From Clostridia bacterium (GTDB lineage Bacteria > Bacillota > Clostridia > Oscillospirales > CAG-272): a DNA stretch of 64,000 nucleotides. The stretch covers positions 22,187 through 86,186 of the forward strand of contig JAFUOQ010000010.1 of the NCBI GenBank assembly GCA_017472695.1, read 5' to 3'. The notes beneath the pieces were generated by a model. The model was not told the DNA's origin, did not search any database, and saw only the letters and a program-made list of their open reading frames with translations. A program made the translations under genes and the position numbers. Shown piece by piece: positions 3,641 through 54,712 of the stretch (positions are counted from its first letter, which is position 1; each line of letters starts with the position of its first letter).

Positions 3641-3961
3641 TAAATGTAGGGGACACATTGACACTCGAAAACTTGTTTTCGTTAGTGGAAAGCGTACAAG
3701 GGAGTACGGCGACTCGTAGGGGCTGCTCCTCCCAAAAGCTTTTTAGATCCATTCGACTCGCGTTCGCTCGCTCAGGATGACGTAACTTACAACGTCATTC
3801 CGAGCCTGTCGAGGAATCTAAAAAGGGAAAATAATATAATAAATTGTAGGAGAGGGCTTGCTCCTTTCGAAAATAATGAAACAATCAAACAAAACGGGAG
3901 GATGATATCCTCCCCTACAAAAAACACAAAAGAATGTAGGGGAGGCAATCTGCCTCCCTTT
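3641..3961. repeat. REP/BIME-like cluster of hairpin modules (C, D, A+B palindromic unit, E, F, G)
   Basis: Seven modules make up this cluster, each with a copy at 21545-21950:
- C: GTAGGGGACACATTGACACTC at 3647
- D: CGTTAGTGGAAAGCGTACAAGGGAG at 3680
- A: TAGATCCATTCGACTCGC..CTCAGGATGACGTA at 3744-3784
- B: ACGTCATTCCGAGCCTGTCGAGGAATCT at 3792-3819
- E: ATTGTAGGAGAGGGCTTGCTCC at 3843
- F: GGGAGGATGATATCCTCCCCTACA at 3896-3919
- G: GTAGGGGAGGCAATCTGCCTCCC at 3936-3958. Confidence 0.9.
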
Positions 3962-9172: not shown

Positions 9173-10255
9173 ATGATTCAATATATGTCTGCGCGTCAAG
9201 CTGCCGAAAAATGGAATATATCACAACGTAGAGTATCTGTTTTGTGTGCTGAAAACCGTATACCAGAAGCTGCAATGCTTGGTAATATGTGGATTATTCC
9301 TATAGATGCAACAAAGCCTGACGATGCTCGTAAAAACAATGGAGCTAAGATGAAAGAAAATGCACGTCCGTTTGTTAAATGGGCTGGAGGAAAAGGGCAA
9401 CTTGTGGATGTTTTAAAAATGAGTTTGCCCATTGGCTTTGGAAAAACAATAACTAAATATGCGGAGCCGTTTGTTGGTGGTGGCGCATTTCTTTTTACTA
9501 TACTAAACGAATATGAATTACAAGAGGTTTACATAAGCGATAACAACAAAGAATTAATAAACGTTTACGAGATAATAAAAAGAGATGTTGTTCTTTTAGT
9601 AAATTCATTGCAACTTTTGCAGGTTGAATATGACATGTGCAATATGGATGAAAAAGAACAGTATTATTATCATAAAAGAGAATTGTTTAATAATATGTCG
9701 CTTTGCAAAGAGACAAAAATTGAAAAGGCGGCACTATTTATCTTTCTAAACAAGACGTGTTTTAATGGACTTTATCGAGTAAATAAAAAAGGAAAATTCA
9801 ATGTTCCATTTGGTAAGCAGTCAACACCTACGATTTGCGACCAAGATAACTTGTTGAAAATTTCAAGAAAATTGCAAAATGTTAGTATTAATGCTTGTGA
9901 TTATCACAATGTAATTGATTTCGCAGATGACTCTACGTTGGTTTATTTTGATCCTCCGTATAGACCGTTAAATGCCACATCGGCTTTTACCTCTTATACA
10001 GAAAATCAATTCAATGATAATGATCAAATTGAGCTTGCTAACTTTTATAAGACGCTTTCTAGCAAGGGTGCAAAATTAATGCTAAGCAATTCCGATCCTC
10101 AAAATGTAAATCCAAACGACAAATTCTTTGAAGAATTATATTGGGATTTTGAAATCCATCATATTAAAGCATATCGAATGATTAATAGTAAGGGTTCATC
10201 AAGAGGAGCAATTCAAGAACTTTTAATTACAAATTATAAGGAGTGTATAAAATGA
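9173..10255 (+). CDS. Type II DNA adenine-N6 methyltransferase, Dam/D12 class, with N-terminal HTH domain
   Basis: ATG at 9173 lies 7 nt after AGAGGA. N-terminal HTH-like segment (SARQAAEKWNISQRRVSVLCAENRIPEA). Then FVKWAGGKGQL, FVGGGAFLF and VYFDPPYRP motifs. Confidence 0.85.
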   Translation: MIQYMSARQAAEKWNISQRRVSVLCAENRIPEAAMLGNMWIIPIDATKPDDARKNNGAKMKENARPFVKWAGGKGQLVDVLKMSLPIGFGKTITKYAEPFVGGGAFLFTILNEYELQEVYISDNNKELINVYEIIKRDVVLLVNSLQLLQVEYDMCNMDEKEQYYYHKRELFNNMSLCKETKIEKAALFIFLNKTCFNGLYRVNKKGKFNVPFGKQSTPTICDQDNLLKISRKLQNVSINACDYHNVIDFADDSTLVYFDPPYRPLNATSAFTSYTENQFNDNDQIELANFYKTLSSKGAKLMLSNSDPQNVNPNDKFFEELYWDFEIHHIKAYRMINSKGSSRGAIQELLITNYKECIK

Positions 10256-10791
10256 TAAAAAGTGGAAAAGGTGGAGGCAACACAAGAACAGGACTTGTGT
10301 TTGAAGGAAAAACCGATTTGTCAACATTTTTAGCAGAACAACCACACTATAGTTTGGTCGGAAATGATGTGTATTATGATAACAAAAAGGTAGCCGAGGT
10401 TTATAAAAAGTATAAGTTTTATAGTGTTTTTCTTGCCAAGCTTGGAATAGATTGGAAACAATATATTTCTAAAAGATTACTGCCTGATGATAGTATTTTT
10501 GTTTTGCTTAACAACGTGCTATTTATTATTGAATGTAAGCACCAAGAGGTTGCCGGTTCAGTAGATGAAAAGTTGCAAACATGCGATTTTAAAAAGAAAC
10601 AATACAAAAAGCTTATGGCTTCTGCAAATATTGATGTTGAGTATATATATTTGCTCGATGATTGGTTTAGACAAGAGCAATATACAGATGTTTTGAATTA
10701 CATACATTCTGTTGGATGTGACTATTATTTTGAATATATTCCGCTGCATAGATTAGGATTGCCAGTTCCACCAGAGCTTGTAAAAGATTAA
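10252..10791 (+). CDS. Putative type II restriction endonuclease (PD-(D/E)XK fold)
   Basis: ATGA overlap with the MTase stop, and AGGAG upstream. Candidate catalytic motif LPDDSIFV..(13)..IIECKHQ. The gene is sandwiched between two MTase genes. Confidence 0.55.
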   Translation: MIKSGKGGGNTRTGLVFEGKTDLSTFLAEQPHYSLVGNDVYYDNKKVAEVYKKYKFYSVFLAKLGIDWKQYISKRLLPDDSIFVLLNNVLFIIECKHQEVAGSVDEKLQTCDFKKKQYKKLMASANIDVEYIYLLDDWFRQEQYTDVLNYIHSVGCDYYFEYIPLHRLGLPVPPELVKD

Positions 10792-10792
10792 G

Positions 10793-11530
10793 ATGACGAA
10801 GAAAATACCATTACAACCAGAAAATTTTGAACTTGAAACAAACACTGTTTGGAGCTTTCCAAACAGAGGGAAATGGGCAACACACGATGCTAAATATCGT
10901 GGAAATTGGTCGCCATACATTCCAAGAAATGTGATTTTAAGATATTCAAACGAAGGAGACACGATTCTCGATCAGTTCGTTGGCGGTGGCACAACCATGG
11001 TTGAAGCCAAACTTACAAACAGAAATGCAATAGGAGTTGATATAAATCCTGTCGCGATAGAATTGACAAAGAAAAAATGCGAATTTTCTTGTGAAACAAA
11101 CTCAAAAATTGAAATTGTTCAAGGCGATGCTCGTTATCTTGACATTGAAGATGAGTTTGTTGACCTTATATGTACTCACCCCCCATATGCAGATATTATT
11201 CAGTATAGTGAAGATATTAAAGGGGATTTGTCGCATTTAAAAATCAAAGATTTTCTAACTGAGATGGACAAGGTCGCGCAAGAATGTTATAGAGTTTTAA
11301 AAAAAGATAAATTTTGCGCTGTATTAATGGGCGACACGCGTAAAAAAGGAATGGTTCAGCCACTTGCTTTTGAAACGATGCGATTGTTTGAATTGGTTGG
11401 ATTTAAAACCAAAGAAATAATAATAAAAGAACAACACAACTGTAAAGCCACAGGCTTTTGGAAAACAAATAGTGTAAAACATAATTTTTTGTTGTTGGCA
11501 CATGAATATTTGTTCATTTTTAAAAAATAG
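10793..11530 (+). CDS. Second DNA methyltransferase (N6A/N4C type, motif I before motif IV, unusual T-H-P-P-Y)
   Basis: 245 aa. TVWSFPN..HDAKYRGNWSPYIPRNVILRYSNEGDTILDQFVGGGTT (AdoMet motif) followed by LICTHPPYADII. The start lies 1 nt after the nuclease stop. Confidence 0.75.
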   Translation: MTKKIPLQPENFELETNTVWSFPNRGKWATHDAKYRGNWSPYIPRNVILRYSNEGDTILDQFVGGGTTMVEAKLTNRNAIGVDINPVAIELTKKKCEFSCETNSKIEIVQGDARYLDIEDEFVDLICTHPPYADIIQYSEDIKGDLSHLKIKDFLTEMDKVAQECYRVLKKDKFCAVLMGDTRKKGMVQPLAFETMRLFELVGFKTKEIIIKEQHNCKATGFWKTNSVKHNFLLLAHEYLFIFKK

Positions 11531-11549: not shown

Positions 11550-13097
11550 ATGGTAAGCATAGCATACAGTGCGGGGCTTTTTGGCATTGACGGATATTTG
11601 GTGACAGTTGAGTGCCACTCGGCTAGGCGCTTGTCCCTTTTTGAGATAGTGGGACTTCCTGACAATGCAATAAAAGAGGCAAAGGAGAGGGTTAGGGCGG
11701 CTGCTATTAACTCGGGCTTGCCATTTCCACAAAATGAAATAATAGTAAATTTAGCCCCTGCTGACAAAAGAAAAGAGGGCTCGTCCTTTGACCTTGCAAT
11801 TCTTATCAGTATTCTTTTAAGTGGCGAGGTGTTTGCAAAGCCACAAGAGCTTGAGGATGCTTGCTTTATAGGGGAATTATCGCTATCCGGAGAGGTGCGC
11901 CGAGTAAACGGTGCACTTTGTATGGCAGTTGCCGCAAAAAACGCAGGTAAAAAGAAGCTTTTTGTACCCTTTGAAAATGCAAAGGAAGCAAGTGTAGTTG
12001 AGGGACTTACAGTTTATGGAGTTAAGAATGTAAACGAAATAGTTAACCACTTTAACGGAGTTAAGGTGCTAGAACCACAAGCTCCAGTGCCTTTTGAAAG
12101 AGAAGAAAATTTAAATTATCCGGATTTTGCAGATGTTATGGGGCAATTTGCCGTGAAGCGTGCAGTTGAAATTGCAGCAGCTGGTGGACACAATATTTTG
12201 CTAATAGGCCCACCGGGTACAGGTAAATCAATGATAGCCAAGAGAATCCCATCTATCTTGCCCGAAATGACCTTTGACGAGTCGATAGAAACAACAAAAA
12301 TTCATTCAGTTTCTGGCATTTTGCCCGACGATGTTTCACTTATAAAGGAAAGACCATTCCGTTCTCCTCACCACACAATGTCAGCGCCATCTTTAGTTGG
12401 TGGTGGCAAAATTCCACAGCCTGGAGAGGTTTCACTAGCTAACAATGGCGTTTTGTTCCTTGACGAATTGCCAGAATTTAACCGCCTAGTTACAGAGTCA
12501 CTCCGTCAACCACTTGAGGACGGAAAAATCACAATAACAAGAACAGCTGGCAGAATTACATACCCTTGCTCATTCATGCTTGTTGCCGCTATGAACCCTT
12601 GTAAATGTGGCTACTATGGTCACCCCACCCACGAGTGTACTTGTAAAAAAGAGGACATAAAGAAATATATTTCAAAAATCAGTGGGCCACTCCTTGATAG
12701 AGTAGATATTCAAATTGAGGTGCCGTCACTCAACTATTCCGAAATTGCCGAGCGTAAAAAAGCAGAGCCGTCAAGCGAAATTCGTGCCAGAGTGAATAAG
12801 GCGCGACAAATTATGCAAGCTCGCTTTGAAAATGATGAAACTGAAAACGGTGTGAAAATCACAAGAAACGCGCAAATGGAGTCAAAGCATTTGCGCAAAT
12901 ACTGCACCTTGAGCCAAGAGTGCTCAGCTCTTATGGAAAGAGCATTTAAGGCTCTTGGGCTTTCCGCACGTGGCCACGATAGAATTCTACGCCTGGCAAG
13001 AACCATTGCCGACCTTGCAGGAAGTGATGAGATAAAACCAAACCATATAGCGGAGGCAATAGGGCTTCGCTCACTCGACAAAAAATATTTTAACTAA
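11550..13097 (+). CDS. YifB/ComM-family Mg-chelatase-like AAA+ ATPase
   Basis: 515 aa. N-terminal Lon-like domain, Walker A GPPGTGKSM, Cys cluster CKCGYYGHPTHECTC. Confidence 0.85.
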   Translation: MVSIAYSAGLFGIDGYLVTVECHSARRLSLFEIVGLPDNAIKEAKERVRAAAINSGLPFPQNEIIVNLAPADKRKEGSSFDLAILISILLSGEVFAKPQELEDACFIGELSLSGEVRRVNGALCMAVAAKNAGKKKLFVPFENAKEASVVEGLTVYGVKNVNEIVNHFNGVKVLEPQAPVPFEREENLNYPDFADVMGQFAVKRAVEIAAAGGHNILLIGPPGTGKSMIAKRIPSILPEMTFDESIETTKIHSVSGILPDDVSLIKERPFRSPHHTMSAPSLVGGGKIPQPGEVSLANNGVLFLDELPEFNRLVTESLRQPLEDGKITITRTAGRITYPCSFMLVAAMNPCKCGYYGHPTHECTCKKEDIKKYISKISGPLLDRVDIQIEVPSLNYSEIAERKKAEPSSEIRARVNKARQIMQARFENDETENGVKITRNAQMESKHLRKYCTLSQECSALMERAFKALGLSARGHDRILRLARTIADLAGSDEIKPNHIAEAIGLRSLDKKYFN

Positions 13098-13318
13098 TGG
13101 TAAAAAATATGAAAAAGAACAAGATTTTAAAAATCAAATTAAGCGAGGATGTGGCAAAGAAATTTGCCATCGTCGCAGAAAACGAAAAAATGACACTCCA
13201 AAATGAAATCATTTCTATGATTCGCCAAAAAATTTCATATTACGAAAGAGTAAAGGGCAATATCAAAAGAGAAGCCCTCGACTCCGCCAATATGAGCGAA
13301 TATTCAGACGAGGAATGA
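13097..13318 (+). CDS. Small hypothetical protein (possible ribbon-helix-helix-like)
   Basis: 73 aa. TAATG overlap with the yifB-like stop. No motif recognised. Confidence 0.4.
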   Translation: MVKNMKKNKILKIKLSEDVAKKFAIVAENEKMTLQNEIISMIRQKISYYERVKGNIKREALDSANMSEYSDEE

Positions 13319-13627
13319 TGGAAAACAAGGATTTGCCAAAACGAAAACCGAATAGATTGAGATGCTTTGACTATAGCATGCCAAAAGGCTATTTTATAAC
13401 AATTTGCACAGAAAATAGAAGCAAGCCCCTCCCCTACAATATCAGATATTGTTTGTGCGTTTAAATCACAATGCGTGCGAAATTGTAGGAAAACAGGCTT
13501 TGAGGGAAAGCTTTTCCAACGCTCGTTCCACGATCACATAATAAGAAACCGAGACGACTATGAAGAAATCTCAAAATACATTTACGAAAACCCTATAAAC
13601 CGGGAGACGGATGAATTTTATAATTAA
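13315..13627 (+). pseudogene. Decayed REP-associated tyrosine transposase (RAYT/IS200-Y1-like) gene
   Basis: N-terminal piece MENKDLPKRKPNRLRCFDYSMPKGYFITICTENRSK ends in a stop at about 13460. The C-terminal piece, in another frame, is ..IVCAFKSQCVRNCRKTGFEGKLFQRSFHDHIIRNRDDYEEISKYIYENPINRE. The middle, where the HUH motif is expected, is missing. The junction carries CCCCTCCCCTACAAT, which is a GTAGGGGAGGGG REP head on the other strand. Confidence 0.6.
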
Positions 13628-13655
13628 AAGCCCGAGCTTGACTTGGGCTTTTTCT
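13628..13655 (+). terminator. Intrinsic terminator
   Basis: GCCCGAG-CTTGA-CTTGGGC hairpin followed by TTTTTC. Confidence 0.6.
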
Positions 13656-13854: not shown

Positions 13855-16800
13855 ATGATAACAAGAAAGAAACAGTCAATGGACGGTAATACCGCTGCCG
13901 CTACTGTCAGCTATGCGTTTACAGAGGTTGCTGCGATTTACCCAATCACACCATCAAGTGTTATGGCTGAGCTCACAGACTCATGGAGTGCTACAGGCTT
14001 AAAGAACATTTTTGGTGAACAAGTAAAGGTTACAGAGATGCAATCCGAGGCCGGTGCTGCTGGTACAGTACATGGCTCACTTGCTGCTGGTGCCCTTACA
14101 ACTACTTACACAGCATCACAAGGCTTGCTCCTTATGATTCCTAACATGTACAAGATCGCTGGTGAGCTTCTTCCAAACGTTATTCACGTTTCAGCTCGTT
14201 GCGTAGCTTCACATGCTCTTAACATTTTCGGAGACCACTCCGACGTATACGCTTGCCGTCAAACAGGTTATGCTATGATGGCTTGCACAAACCCACAAGA
14301 GGTTATGGACCTTGGTGCAGTTGCACACTTGTCCACAATCAAGGGTAGAGTTCCTGTTCTTAACTTCTTTGACGGATTCCGTACATCACACGAAATTCAA
14401 AAGATTGAGGTTTGGGATTACAAGGATCTTGAAGAAATGGTTGACAAGGATGCTATTCAAGCATTCCGTGCTCGTTCAATCAACCCAGAGCACCCAGTTC
14501 TCCGTGGCTCTGCAGAAAACGGCGACATCTTCTTCCAACACAGAGAAGCTTGTAACCAATATTATAATGCTTTCCCAGCAATCGTAGAAAACTACATGAA
14601 TAAAGTAAACGAGAAAATCGGTACTGACTATAAGCTCTTTAACTACTACGGAGCCCCTGATGCTGAAAGAGTTATCGTTGCTATGGGTTCTGTATGTGAC
14701 GTTTGTGAAGAGGTTATTGATTACCTAACAGCAAAGGGCGAAAAGGTTGGTCTTGTTAAGGTTAGACTTTACCGTCCATTCGTTGCAGACAAGTTTGTTG
14801 AGGCTATCCCTGCAACAGCAAAGAAGGTTGCAGTTCTTGATAGAACAAAGGAGCCAGGCTCACTTGGTGAACCACTTTACCTCGATGTTGTTTCATCACT
14901 CGCTATTAAGGGTGTAAACGCTAAGGTTGTTGGTGGACGTTATGGTCTTGGTTCAAAGGACACAACACCTGCATCAATCTTCGCAGTATATGAGAACTTG
15001 AATCTCGATGAACCAAAGGCTAACTTCACAATCGGTATCGTTGACGACGTTACAGGTCTTTCACTTCCTGAAACCACAAACGTTGACACCAGTGCAAAGG
15101 GAACAATCTCTTGCAAGTTCTGGGGTCTTGGCGGTGACGGTACAGTTGGTGCTAACAAGAACTCAATCAAGATTATCGGTGACTACACAGATAAGTTTAT
15201 TCAAGCTTATTTCCAATATGACTCAAAGAAAACAGGAGGTATTACAATTTCTCACCTTCGTTTCGGCGATTCAGTTATTAAGAGCCCATACTACATAACA
15301 AAGGCTGACTTTGTTGCATGTCACAACCCTTCATACATGCTCAAGGGCTACAAGATTGTTAATGACGTTAAGCCAGGTGGTACATTCCTACTCAACTGCC
15401 AATGGACAGTAGATGAGCTTGATGCTCACTTGCCAGCAGAGGTTAAGAAGTACATCGCTGAAAACAATATTCAATTCTACATTGTAAACGCTATTGACAA
15501 GGCTATTGAAATCGGTATGGGTAAGAGAACAAACACAATTCTCCAATCCGCTTTCTTTGCTCTTGCTAACATTATGCCTATCGATGAGGCAATCGAAAAG
15601 ATGAAGTATATGGCTAAGAAGTCATACCTCAAGAAGGGCGAAGCAGTAGTTGAAATGAACTACAAGGCTATCGATGCTGGTAAGGAGGCTCTCGTTAAGG
15701 TTGAGGTTCCTGCTTCTTGGAAGAATGTAGATGTAGTAGAGGCTAAGGAAACAGTTAAGGGCAAGCGTCCAGAGCTCGTTAAGTATGTTGAAAACGTACT
15801 TCTCCCTGTATCAAAGATGGAGGGTGATAAGCTCCCAGTTTCTGCATTTGTTGATTACGTTGACGGTACATTCCCACAAGGTGCTGCTGCATACGAAAAG
15901 CGTGGTGTTGCAGTTACTGTTCCAGAGTGGATTCCAGAAAACTGTATCCAATGTAACCAATGCTCATATGTATGTCCACACGCAACAATCCGTCCATTCG
16001 CTATGAACGCTGATGAGGCAGCTAACGCTCCAGAGTCAACAAAGTTCGCAGCAAAGATGATTGGTAAGGGATGCGAGGACTACAAGTTCACAATCGCTAT
16101 CAGCCCACTTGACTGTATGGGTTGCGGTCTTTGTGTTAACGTTTGTCCAGTAGCTCTTAAGGCTAAGGCAAACGGCACTCCGGAAAAGACACCAATTAGA
16201 ATGGTATCACAAGCTAGCCAGCTCGATCAACAAGCAGCATTTGACTATGCAGTTGCTAATGTATCAAAGAAGGAGCTTCCATTCCAAGAGGTTTCCGTTA
16301 AGGGTAGCCAATTCAACCAACCATTACTTGAGTTCTCTGGCTCATGTGCAGGTTGTGCTGAAACATCATATGCACGTCTTATCACACAGCTCTTTGGTGA
16401 GAGAATGTACATTTCTAACGCAACAGGCTGTTCATCCATTTGGGGTGGTTCAGCTCCTGCAACACCATACACAGTAAACAAGGATTCTCTCCGTGGTCCA
16501 GCTTGGGCTAACTCACTATTTGAGGACAACGCAGAGCATGGTCTTGGTATGTACCTCGGTCAAAAGACTCTCCGTGAAAAGCTAATCCGAAAGGTTGCTG
16601 AAATGGCAGAGAGCGACAAGGCTTCAGACGAATTCAAGGCGGCTGCAAAGGCTTACCTTGACACAGTTGACGATGGTAAGGCAAATGAGGGCGCAACAAA
16701 GGCTCTTATCGTTGAGCTCGAAAAGGCAGAGGCACAAGGTTGCCCAGTAGCTAAAGAGGTTCTCGCTGATAAGAACTACCTCTCAAAGAAATCCGTATGG

Positions 16801-17442
16801 ATCTTCGGTGGTGACGGTTGGGCTTACGATATCGGATTTGGTGGTCTTGACCATGTACTTGCTTCTGGTGAAGATGTAAACGTAATGGTATTCGATACAG
16901 AGGTATATTCAAACACAGGTGGTCAAGCTTCAAAGGCTTCTAACCTCGGTCAGGTTGCACAATTTGCTGCAGCTGGTAAGGCTATCGGTAAGAAGAACCT
17001 TGCTGAAATTGCTATGTCTTATGGTTATGTATATGTAGCACAAATCGCTATGGGTGCAGACCCAGCTCAAACAATCAAGGCTATTGCTGAGGCTGAGGCT
17101 TATAAGGGTCCATCACTTATCATCGGTTATGCTCCATGTGAAATGCATGGTCTTAAGGGTGGTATGACAAACTGTCAAGGCGAAATGAAGAAGGCTGTTG
17201 AGGCTGGTTATTGGGATCTATTCAGATACAACCCATCACTCAAGGCAGAGGGCAAGAACCCATTCTCACTCGACTCCAAGGAGCCAACAGGCGACTACCG
17301 TGCATTCTTGACAAACGAAACACGTTACAGCCGTCTTGCTCAACAATTCCCAGACAGAGCGGAAAAGCTCTTCACAGCAAGCGAAGAGGCTGCAAAGGCT
17401 AAGTACGAAAGACTTAAGAGATTCATTGAGCTCTACAAGTGA
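13855..17442 (+). CDS. nifJ: Pyruvate:ferredoxin (flavodoxin) oxidoreductase, single-chain
   Basis: 1195 aa. MDGNTAAA..AIYPITPSS N-terminus. Two 4Fe-4S motifs (CIQCNQCSYVCPH, CMGCGLCVNVCP). TPP block GGDGWAYDIG. Confidence 0.95.
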   Translation: MITRKKQSMDGNTAAATVSYAFTEVAAIYPITPSSVMAELTDSWSATGLKNIFGEQVKVTEMQSEAGAAGTVHGSLAAGALTTTYTASQGLLLMIPNMYKIAGELLPNVIHVSARCVASHALNIFGDHSDVYACRQTGYAMMACTNPQEVMDLGAVAHLSTIKGRVPVLNFFDGFRTSHEIQKIEVWDYKDLEEMVDKDAIQAFRARSINPEHPVLRGSAENGDIFFQHREACNQYYNAFPAIVENYMNKVNEKIGTDYKLFNYYGAPDAERVIVAMGSVCDVCEEVIDYLTAKGEKVGLVKVRLYRPFVADKFVEAIPATAKKVAVLDRTKEPGSLGEPLYLDVVSSLAIKGVNAKVVGGRYGLGSKDTTPASIFAVYENLNLDEPKANFTIGIVDDVTGLSLPETTNVDTSAKGTISCKFWGLGGDGTVGANKNSIKIIGDYTDKFIQAYFQYDSKKTGGITISHLRFGDSVIKSPYYITKADFVACHNPSYMLKGYKIVNDVKPGGTFLLNCQWTVDELDAHLPAEVKKYIAENNIQFYIVNAIDKAIEIGMGKRTNTILQSAFFALANIMPIDEAIEKMKYMAKKSYLKKGEAVVEMNYKAIDAGKEALVKVEVPASWKNVDVVEAKETVKGKRPELVKYVENVLLPVSKMEGDKLPVSAFVDYVDGTFPQGAAAYEKRGVAVTVPEWIPENCIQCNQCSYVCPHATIRPFAMNADEAANAPESTKFAAKMIGKGCEDYKFTIAISPLDCMGCGLCVNVCPVALKAKANGTPEKTPIRMVSQASQLDQQAAFDYAVANVSKKELPFQEVSVKGSQFNQPLLEFSGSCAGCAETSYARLITQLFGERMYISNATGCSSIWGGSAPATPYTVNKDSLRGPAWANSLFEDNAEHGLGMYLGQKTLREKLIRKVAEMAESDKASDEFKAAAKAYLDTVDDGKANEGATKALIVELEKAEAQGCPVAKEVLADKNYLSKKSVWIFGGDGWAYDIGFGGLDHVLASGEDVNVMVFDTEVYSNTGGQASKASNLGQVAQFAAAGKAIGKKNLAEIAMSYGYVYVAQIAMGADPAQTIKAIAEAEAYKGPSLIIGYAPCEMHGLKGGMTNCQGEMKKAVEAGYWDLFRYNPSLKAEGKNPFSLDSKEPTGDYRAFLTNETRYSRLAQQFPDRAEKLFTASEEAAKAKYERLKRFIELYK

Positions 17443-21544: not shown

Positions 21545-21950
21545 AGATCCTTCGACTCGCATTCGCTCGCTCAGGATGACGTAGCTTTTGCGCTTCACAA
21601 CGTCATTCCGAGCTTGTCGAGGAATCTATTAGCAGGAGGATTTAAAATTGTAGAGGAAGGGCTTGCTCCTCCCGAAAAATAAAGGATGAAGCAAACGGGA
21701 GGATGATATCCTCCCCTACATAGAACAATATTGATACATCGTAGGGGACACATTGACACTCAAAAACTGCCTCCATCCTTGAGGGAGGTGGATTTTGCGG
21801 AGCAAAAGACGGAAGGAGTATCGTTAGTGGAAAGCGTACAAGGGAGCGTAGCGAGTCGTAGGCAATCTGCCTCCCGAAAATATTTTTAGATCCATTCGAC
21901 TCGCTTTGCTTCGCTCAGGATGACGTAGGGGCGAACATTGTTCGTCCGCC
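21545..21950. repeat. Large REP/BIME-like cluster (modules A, B, E, F, C, H, D, G, A, I)
   Basis: Same module set as 3641-3961 but in a different order, with module H (also at 8332) inserted between C and D. It ends with GTAGGGGCGAACATTGTTCGTCCGCC, which is also present at 54663. Confidence 0.9.
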
Positions 21951-54538: not shown

Positions 54539-54712
54539 TAGGGGGGAGGCTTGCTCCTCCCGATTTTATGTCAGGTGTAAAATTGTACGTGTGACCATTG
54601 ATCACCATAAAAAAGAGACTCGGTAAGGCGGACTTCTCATAAGGATGTTTACCTGACACACGGTAGGGGCGAACTGCGTTCGCCCGCGTGAGACCACAGT
54701 TCCCCCTACGAA
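54539..54712. repeat. REP-like module cluster
   Basis: TAGGGGGGAGGCTTGCTCCTCCC at 54539 (module E type). AAAAAAGAGACTCGGTAAGG..CTTCTCATAAGGA at 54609, related to 56127-56170 on the opposite strand. GTAGGGGCGAACTGCGTTCGCCC at 54663 (module I). An inverted head GTTCCCCCTAC at 54699. Confidence 0.8.

Follow-up and report, generated by a model that had tools for sequence, protein, structure and literature searches.

A 64,000-nt stretch of DNA from a Clostridia bacterium (hereafter the window) carries at positions 13318-13627 what is most probably a pseudogene of a clostridial REP-associated tyrosine transposase (RAYT or TnpA-REP; REP, repetitive extragenic palindrome), an enzyme of the Y1 (HUH) type whose core was lost through a 191-nt deletion. 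The window is G000:C3:22187-86186 (a window coordinate is the C3 coordinate minus 22186), and genome G000 is a metagenome-assembled genome (MAG) of 1.78 Mb in 43 contigs. Judged from its reading frames and alignments, this copy is dead in both catalysis and translation; it is what remains of a RAYT/TnpA-REP family member, not a functional member.

A transposase gene in two pieces

The encoded protein survives only as its two ends. A sequence-only reading of the window had proposed that no open reading frame (ORF) of 60 aa or more is present here and that two frames translate into the N- and C-terminal parts of a RAYT, and this holds true. The ORF list contains no frame of at least 60 aa between a host ORF of 73 aa and the terminator downstream. 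Frame 1 (13315-13464, 49 aa) reads MMENKDLPKRKPNRLRCFDYSMPKGYFITICTENR and then runs into out-of-family residues, and the second frame, open from 13400 to 13627, reads ..ASPSPTISDIVCAFKSQCVRNCRKTGFEGKLFQRSFHDHIIRNRDDYEEISKYIYENPINRETDEFYN up to its stop codon. The features of the remnant are as follows.

13318..13419, plus strand: N-terminal fragment of the RAYT/TnpA-REP gene, codons 1-34 (MENKDLPKRKPNRLRCFDYSMPKGYFITICTENR), from translation and alignment to intact homologues and the G031 orthologue
13418..13423, no strand assigned: deletion junction, from alignments to G031:C9 and G016:C43
13420..13437, minus strand: remaining half of the right-hand REP that belongs to the ORF itself (minus-strand sequence GTAGGGGAGGGGCTTGCT), from a pattern search and comparison with the complete REP
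13421..13627, plus strand: C-terminal fragment in a shifted frame, 68 codons (ASPSPTISDIV..FQRSFHDHIIRN..YIYENP..DEFYN), stop at 13625-13627

The C-terminal fragment shares 81% aa identity with the homologue in G016 and matches the NCBIfam family NF047646, REP_Tyr_transpos (E=3.4e-10, profile positions 71-133 of 146). Its score of 40 bits is below the curated cut-off of 80, as expected because it is only a fragment, and its match to Pfam Y1_Tnp is weak (E=0.07). The catalytic-tyrosine motif YIxxNP, preceded by (W/F)Q..H.IRN, is retained: via a paralogue, the stretch FQRSFHDHIIRN...KYIYENP (13505-13597) aligns to WQPRFWEHAIRN...DYIYINP of the Escherichia coli enzyme (PDB 4ER8). The sequence-only reading had proposed profile searches for both fragments. 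The N-terminal fragment alone, too short for hidden Markov models (HMMs), matched no model in Pfam or NCBIfam; it aligns codon for codon with intact homologues (first 35 alignment columns) and with the G031 orthologue.

The 191-nt deletion

A census of the genus, with retrieval of full-length copies, yielded an intact orthologue of 166 aa, G031:C9:14587-15087, at the same locus (stop of the 73-aa ORF, gene, terminator and the gene for pyruvate:ferredoxin oxidoreductase, PFOR). Global alignment to G031:C9 gives 86.5% identity over 898 positions and places one gap, of 191 nt, between window positions 13419 and 13420. The closest paralogue, G016:C43:34599-35096, likewise aligns with a single gap, of 194 nt and with the same ends. 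The two ends of the deletion, which the sequence-only reading left to be located, are thereby placed.

Where G031 reads ..GAAAATAGA AGTAAGATTTTATCTACCATT GTAGGGGAGGGGCTTGCTCCTCCCG, then the core with MPNHIH, then CGGGAGG AGCAAGCCCCTCCCCTAC AATATCAGAT.., the window reads ..GAAAATAGA AGCAAGCCCCTCCCCTAC AATATCAGAT.. at the junction. The missing block starts 21 nt upstream of the left REP and takes in this REP, the HUH core and, from the right REP, the 5' arm and 2 nt of the loop. A shared 'AG' makes the breakpoint ambiguous by 2 nt. In the intact gene, an imperfect 8-nt direct repeat (GAAGTAAG and GGAGCAAG) flanks the deleted block. The loss amounts to 63 codons plus 2 nt and therefore changes the frame. 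Moreover, the segment of about 64 residues that bears the HUH motif (alignment columns 36-104) is absent from the window copy, as the sequence-only reading had supposed; in the G031 orthologue it lies in the 191-nt block, and it is because this block contains the motif that the window copy lacks it.

That reading had also placed a REP head, in reverse complement, at the junction. Indeed, a pattern search gave a single match to GTAGGGGAGGGG in the window, at 13426-13437 of the minus strand (chance expectation 0.08). It belongs to the 18 nt (13420..13437) that comprise the loop, 3' arm and GTAG head of a REP on the minus strand, the complete form of which, GTAGGGGAGGGGCTTGCTCCTCCCG, is found within the genes of G031, G016 and G011 and, in the form of solo copies, in the genome. 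The full REP folds at -5.7 kcal/mol with GTAG unpaired; the window remnant is unstructured, because its partner arm is gone. By these alignments, the junction motif is half of the gene's own right-hand REP and not a foreign REP.

Inverted REPs around the HUH core

Genome G000 also has an intact paralogue, of the kind that the sequence-only reading proposed to look for. This gene (C15:6614-7105, 165 aa, with MPNHIH and YIYENP) aligns to the E. coli TnpA-REP 4ER8 (E=1.1e-4) with the HUH motif, the W/FQ..H.IRN stretch and YIY.NP matched. Its HMM scores are 59.7 bits for NF047646 (cut-off 80) and 21.9 bits (23.6 summed) for Pfam Y1_Tnp (cut-off 23). It has more than 3,200 homologues, mostly in Clostridia MAGs (Acutalibacteraceae MAGs are also represented), some of them named RayT or transposase. 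A second subfamily, which we call type B, is split across contig ends in G000, where synteny with G015 joins C43 to C41 and C38 to C10. There are also further broken copies, and G000 holds at least six loci and three subfamilies of this gene. The HUH motif takes the form MPNHIH or MPNHMH in the G031 orthologue and in the C15, C43, G016 and G011 copies.

Each intact G000 gene, compared with itself by BLAST, holds a perfect 27-nt inverted repeat within its ORF, on both sides of the HUH segment (GTAGGGCGGGGGCTTGCTCCCGCCGAA in C15 and GTAGGGACAGGCGTCCTCGACTGTCCG in C43). In C15, C43, G011, G016 and G031, the HUH motif lies between perfect in-ORF inverted repeats 25-28 nt long, each headed by GTAGGG and with a stem of 8 bp. 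We identify these repeats as REPs because the same sequences recur as solo intergenic copies. They are translated as ..VG(R/E/T)G(L/V)(A/L)(P/D).. and ..G(A/R)SP(R/S/V)PT.. (..VGEGLAPPE.. and ..GGASPSPT.., for example).

A wider survey covered 80 loci from other Clostridia, with 79 ORFs that have the HUH motif. An exact inverted repeat flanking that motif reaches at least 10 nt in 68 of the 79, at least 14 nt in 54 and at least 20 nt in 33; in shuffled ORFs the longest inverted repeat averages 7.6 nt, with a maximum of 13. GTAGG is contained in 60 of the 79 ORFs, there are 24 different stems, and the REP arms vary from gene to gene while matching within each gene. This in-frame REP pair inside the gene and around the HUH core extends what has been published on in-frame REPs for TnpA-REP subclass 2.4 (PMC6006769).

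Several RAYT genes of other Clostridia (loci L100-L103 and L145) are preceded by a common sequence context, TGTGTTATAATGG, whose TATAAT-like box and the start codon overlap. It may be a conserved leader or a leaderless arrangement of one subfamily.

Core loss, inversion and duplication in other copies

The window copy is not the only one to have lost its core. The gene is present in 24 of 41 genus genomes (0-13 matches each), and against about 33 full-length copies in these 41 genomes there are core-less copies at C38, C32, G015:C29, G003:C89, G002:C100 and G031:C6. The type-B copies C38 (24479-24740, joined to C10:1-181) and C32 (48471-48797) lack the same 183-nt in-frame block, whose left end is 1 nt ahead of the left GTAG and whose right end leaves the last 9 nt of the right REP in place. 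The resulting junction, AATATAAC joined to TGTCCCTAC, is identical although the two copies are only 85% alike; beyond the deleted block, C38 matches the intact C43 copy at 95-100% identity. The shared junction would mean that one deletion arose twice or that a copy already without its core was duplicated or moved. G015:C29 is the orthologue of the intact C15 copy and has lost the core and kept one REP. G003:C89 and G002:C100 each consist of an N-terminal and a C-terminal piece with the core absent. The C32 locus presents a series of decay: the gene is full-length in G016 and without its core in G000, and remnants of about 75 nt and about 15 nt are left in G031 and G015, respectively.

A further remnant in G000 (G000:C39:11350-11596; orthologous loci L076, G015:C10:97900-98980, and L077, G011:C18) has its core inverted between the REPs: relative to G015, identity is 80% with the core flipped and 52% when it is kept collinear. 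Recombination between the 25-nt inverted REPs apparently inverted this core. We also considered C39:11350-11590 as a transposed REP-core-REP cassette and rejected it, since the G015 and G011 loci reveal a gene truncated in situ with an inverted core.

In other Clostridia MAGs (P0004, P0006, P0008, P0010 and P0074), RAYT homologues of 185-242 aa contain 2-4 tandem repeats. The unit of 13 or 26 aa begins at the right-hand in-ORF REP, NEAAGASPRPT(IMDIVCAYKSLTTRE), and such tandem duplication adds, on sequence comparison, a third type of rearrangement associated with REPs.

Gain and loss of the gene

The gene lies between host genes, with the following features around it.

11550..13097, plus strand: gene for a YifB/ComM-type Mg-chelatase-like ATPase, 515 aa (Pfam Mg_chelatase E=3e-94, ChlI, Mg_chelatase_C), first gene of the host operon
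13097..13318, plus strand: 73-aa host ORF (ORF list); its ATG overlaps the yifB stop (TAATG), and its TGA stop is at 13316-13318
13626..13652, plus strand: host intrinsic terminator (terminator scan), AAAAGCCCGAG..CTTGGGCTTTT and a T-run
13855..17442, plus strand: PFOR gene (Pfam POR_N, POR, EKR, PFOR_II, TPP_enzyme_C), the downstream context

The 73-aa ORF has no family match in Pfam or NCBIfam. It is conserved at 87-95% nt identity in G015, G005, G016, G001 and G031, whether or not a transposase gene lies downstream. Its TGA (13316-13318) overlaps the ATG at 13315 and abuts the one at 13318, which bears out the overlap noted in the sequence-only reading. The terminator, similarly, is present at the empty sites of congeners without the transposase gene, and it is therefore not part of the inserted unit.

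In G015, G005 and G016 there is no trace of the gene at this locus, where GACGAGGAATGAT runs directly into AAAAAGCCC..; G001 and G013 are likewise uninterrupted. In the window, GACGAGGAATGAT is followed by the unit (GGAAAAC...TTTTATAAT) and then by TAAAAGCCC. By this comparison the unit equals the ORF to within about 2 nt. Other loci behave similarly, with different boundaries. Across filled and empty pairs at five loci the boundaries fall 0-25 nt from the ORF ends and differ by locus, and these five pairs revealed no terminal hairpins of the unit and no common target. The G017:C83 copy, unique among more than 20 genomes with an intact gene junction, extends beyond its ORF by about 4 nt on the upstream side and about 20 nt on the downstream side. 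The G015:C10 / G031:C6 copy brings with it a leader of 15 nt and a terminator hairpin of its own, and the G011:C22 locus differs in the last codons of the upstream gene. The C32 locus holds two different subfamilies in different species. These comparisons indicate that the gene is turned over as a small, roughly ORF-sized unit that has neither external REPs nor terminal repeats and is accompanied by no consistent target duplication.

We had considered that the window locus might be a lineage-specific insertion in which 'AT + G' assembled the start codon. This is weakened by the intact gene at the same site in G031, and also by the boundaries 4-25 nt outside the ORF at G017:C83, G011:C22 and G015:C10.

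Five G000 copies start 0-3 nt after, or overlap, the stop of a co-oriented upstream gene, and at about 27 of 68 Clostridia loci the start lies within -4..+6 nt of the stop of an upstream gene on the same strand. This juxtaposition is suggestive, not decisive. The window gene, which has neither its own promoter nor external repeats, presumably relied on read-through transcription and stop/start coupling. More speculatively, and in our view rather improbably, clostridial RAYT genes may be minimal mobile units of about 0.5 kb whose sole cis-acting hairpins lie inside the ORF. Such units would insert in the same orientation as the host genes, at their 3' ends or at the junctions between cistrons, borrow transcription and stop/start coupling, and be able to leave without a scar; the core would be a deletable and invertible cassette that limits the lifetime of the element, and core-less copies such as C38 and C32 might still be moved in trans. 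If this were true, the window copy would be one snapshot of that life cycle.

Other small hairpin structures were seen at loci of this kind. The locus of the C15 gene has, in relatives (L053-L057), only a GGGAGG..CCTCCC hairpin terminator, which resembles a REP stem without the GTAG head; the C15 RAYT gene may have replaced this hairpin, or decayed into it, rather than being a clean insertion. The same locus in G011 (G011:C20:59900-61000, L059, positions ~400-700) holds five tandem units of about 62 nt with two hairpins each (..GCCTTCCCCTTGAGGGGAAGGTGTCAACTCCGTTGACGGATGAGGTGTATTTAA..). Another small hairpin element lies at operon junctions in L064 (G013:C29:41300-42200) and L070 (G001:C19:25400-26410), flanked by duplicated upstream-gene ends of about 45-50 nt. 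In the terminator after the C32 remnant (G000:C32:48400-48470), the loop GCACACC..GGTGTGC has an inserted GTGAAC-N-GTTCAC palindrome that is absent in G015, G005 and G031.

How the core was lost

We lean slightly towards a deletion by replication slippage or microhomology joining at the imperfect direct repeat, assisted by hairpins, and not by a transposase cutting its own gene. The template would be stalled or folded by the hairpin-forming inverted REPs, and slippage or microhomology joining between GAAGTAAG and GGAGCAAG would then lose the 191 nt. We prefer slippage because there is a short, imperfect direct repeat, because the break lies within a hairpin loop and because breakpoints vary among the events. 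The sequence-only reading had suggested a REP-mediated deletion. This is plausible only: the right breakpoint does fall within a REP, whereas the left one lies 21 nt upstream of the left REP, at the imperfect repeat.

Several points weigh against our account, in its mechanism and in its broader outline. The direct repeat on which slippage rests is imperfect (6/8), with 2 nt exact only. The identical junction of C38 and C32, just 85% alike, hints at a more site-specific process. The junction is known from assembled sequence, that of a 43-contig MAG. Even the intact C15 paralogue stays below the curated HMM cut-offs, so that family placement rests on motifs, the 4ER8 alignment and the names in source records. 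Finally, the congeners without the gene are locally closer to G000 (73-aa ORF identity 94-95%) than G031 is (87%), and the history of the locus is therefore either one old insertion and a clean loss or two insertions at one site.

The principal alternative is self-excision, in which a RAYT enzyme (the gene's own product or that of a paralogue) cut single-stranded DNA beside the in-ORF REPs and rejoined the ends, so that REP-core-REP would be an excisable cassette akin to the REP doublets known as REPINs. We consider this unlikely. A segment between two inverted REPs does have exactly the REPIN geometry, and the type-B C38 and C32 copies share their junction to the nucleotide, with the left break 1 nt before GTAG and the right break between the C and T of a CT step. 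Moreover, TnpA-REP enzymes, guided by GTAG, cut on the 5' or the 3' side of REPs at CT or CA dinucleotides (Corneloup et al. 2021, PMC8266576). In the window copy, however, the left break is 21 nt from a REP and the right break is in the hairpin loop, neither of them at a CT/CA step on the REP-sense strand. Nor do the breakpoints agree among the window copy, type B, G015:C29, G002 and G003, and junctions of the CT/CA cleavage type, sought among the deletions, formed no consistent pattern. A reverse-complement REP, furthermore, is not a substrate in the systems studied. C39 could be cited for excision, as it holds a REP-core-REP remnant without most of the gene ends, but it is a gene truncated in situ with an inverted core, partly shared with G015, and not a transposed cassette.

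Much less probable is an assembly artefact or minority allele, the true genome being full-length and the assembler having collapsed a segment bounded by inverted repeats. The fragmented state of the MAG (43 contigs) and the position of other family copies at contig ends (C43, C38, C10 and C41) would be in keeping with this. Yet the locus lies deep within a 105.7-kb contig, and the junction is asymmetric to the inverted repeat and sits at a short direct repeat, as is typical of a biological deletion. Similar core deletions are present, too, in independently assembled genomes.

We give very little credence to a functional short form, whether as a truncated regulator that binds DNA or as a gene that programmed frameshifting restores. 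Neither fragment has internal stops, and the type-B deletion in C38 is in frame and leaves an open frame of 98 aa. But the window copy needs a frame change and would still be without the HUH motif, no slippery site is evident at 13415-13425, and C32, with the same deletion as C38, has an internal stop. The truncated form at this locus is kept in no other genome: G031 has the full gene and five others have none.

The last possibility, a free REP inserted secondarily in an already truncated gene, could draw on solo REPs of the same sequence (C26:29150, C35:37932, C35:42065 and C35:44599) but is effectively refuted by the G031 and G016 alignments: just half of a REP is present, and its 18 nt are collinear and in frame with the orthologue's right-hand REP and next codons (..ASPSPTISDIV..), with no extra bases.

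REPs and other features elsewhere

A genome-wide scan for GTAGGG plus a hairpin found about 30-40 such REPs of many stem types in G000, five of them in the window.

3895..3959, no strand assigned: head-to-head pair of GTAGGG-headed REP hairpins of the same stem type (GTAGGGGAGGATATCATCCTCCCG, minus strand, from 3918; GTAGGGGAGGCAATCTGCCTCCC, plus strand, from 3936)
21696..21948, no strand assigned: two REPs (GTAGGGGAGGATATCATCCTCCCG, minus strand, from 21719; GTAGGGGCGAACATTGTTCGTCCG, plus strand, from 21925)
54663..54686, plus strand: solo REP (GTAGGGGCGAACTGCGTTCGCCCG)

No GTAGGG hairpin was found outside the ORF near the window copy (the nearest is about 8 kb away), near C15 or C43, or in the flanks of the G031 orthologue. 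The sequence-only reading saw in the window gene a dead candidate for the enzyme that mobilised the REP-like modules. The copy is indeed dead, as is the other G000 copy with REP type GGGAGGGGCTTGCTCCTCCC, the C39 remnant, and about five solo REPs of that type remain. It is not, however, the genome's only candidate: C15, as well as C43 joined to C41, are intact paralogues whose REP stems differ.

Just upstream of yifB, at 10243-11530, the window has an ORF of 182 aa and, after it, a gene for an N6/N4 DNA methylase (Pfam N6_N4_Mtase, E=4e-27). The two are possibly a small restriction-modification pair.

Significance

Taken as a pseudogene, the window copy shows nothing beyond the usual decay, in a family that has been partly described; it is valuable as an example that is dated and resolved to the nucleotide. 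The G031 orthologue and the scar-free sites of congeners reveal a tnpA-REP gene, without external REPs or terminal repeats, that is gained or lost as a roughly ORF-sized unit. Moreover, the outcomes of having an inverted REP pair within an ORF can be observed: deletion (three times) and inversion (once) in one genome, and tandem duplication in relatives. This offers a testable account of RAYT self-inactivation and of the orphaning of some REP subfamilies. In-frame REPs were already published in 2018, and what adds interest here is that turnover of the unit, and the deletion and inversion of the core in association with REPs, are documented at nucleotide level. For annotation, mini-ORFs that are split in this way and called 'hypothetical' in gut Clostridia MAGs are best named RAYT pseudogenes.

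Comparison with known systems

In-frame REPs inside tnpA-REP genes have been described for subclass 2.4, equivalent to RAYT Group 4 (Quentin, Siguier, Chandler & Fichant 2018, PMC6006769). Members of this subclass are probably the closest published relatives of the clade to which the window pseudogene belongs, an assignment made by motifs only. Both are small Y1 HUH proteins without a C-terminal extension; both have NH[IFV]H (here NHIH or NHMH) and a YIxNNP-like motif (here YIYENP, one position off); and both have GTAG-headed REPs with G-C pairs at the foot of the stem and in-ORF REPs that keep the frame. There are also differences. The clostridial genes have two inverted REPs, before and after the HUH motif, whereas PMC6006769 places the insertions generally between HuH and Y, and they are without flanking REPs. 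They often have FQ for WQ (FQ in the window lineage, WQ in type B and G016); FQ is also listed for subclass 2.1. Their mean length is about 166 aa as against 194. Subclass 2.4 is found mainly in Cyanobacteria and Bacteroidetes and not, as here, in Clostridia, and the clostridial genes, unlike that subclass, occur as several diverged copies per genome with presence/absence polymorphism.

The E. coli REPtron (YafM/RayT, PDB 4ER8) is similar in showing a homologous sequence match at the level of the fold (E=1.1e-4) and in having a GTAG head and hairpin as the presumed substrate. The E. coli gene, however, is single-copy, with external flanking REPs and hundreds of REPs in the genome; here the REPs lie in the ORF, G000 has only about 30-40 of them, of many stem types, and the gene family is multi-copy and decaying. 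REPs do not flank the gene on both sides, the arrangement that defines a REPtron, at the window copy, C15, C43 or the G031 orthologue. The association with dispersed GTAG-headed REPs is present, in that the same GTAGGG hairpins of 25-27 nt are found both within the genes and on their own. REPINs (Bertels & Rainey 2011, PMC3116915; PMC3337134) differ in their spacer, which is here the coding sequence for the HUH core of the transposase. We found no evidence for transposition of a REP-core-REP unit by itself, the candidate at C39 being an in-situ remnant.

Like IS200/IS605 insertion sequences (IS608, ISDra2), the clostridial genes encode a Y1 HUH enzyme, are small, and appear and disappear without target duplication or scar. 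Those elements, by contrast, carry subterminal hairpins outside the ORF at both ends and have a fixed tetra- or pentanucleotide target. The domesticated single-copy RAYT, on the other hand, is present at about one copy per genome, inherited vertically and free of IS-like turnover (Bertels et al. 2017), whereas the clostridial genes are multi-copy and alternately present and absent at orthologous loci.

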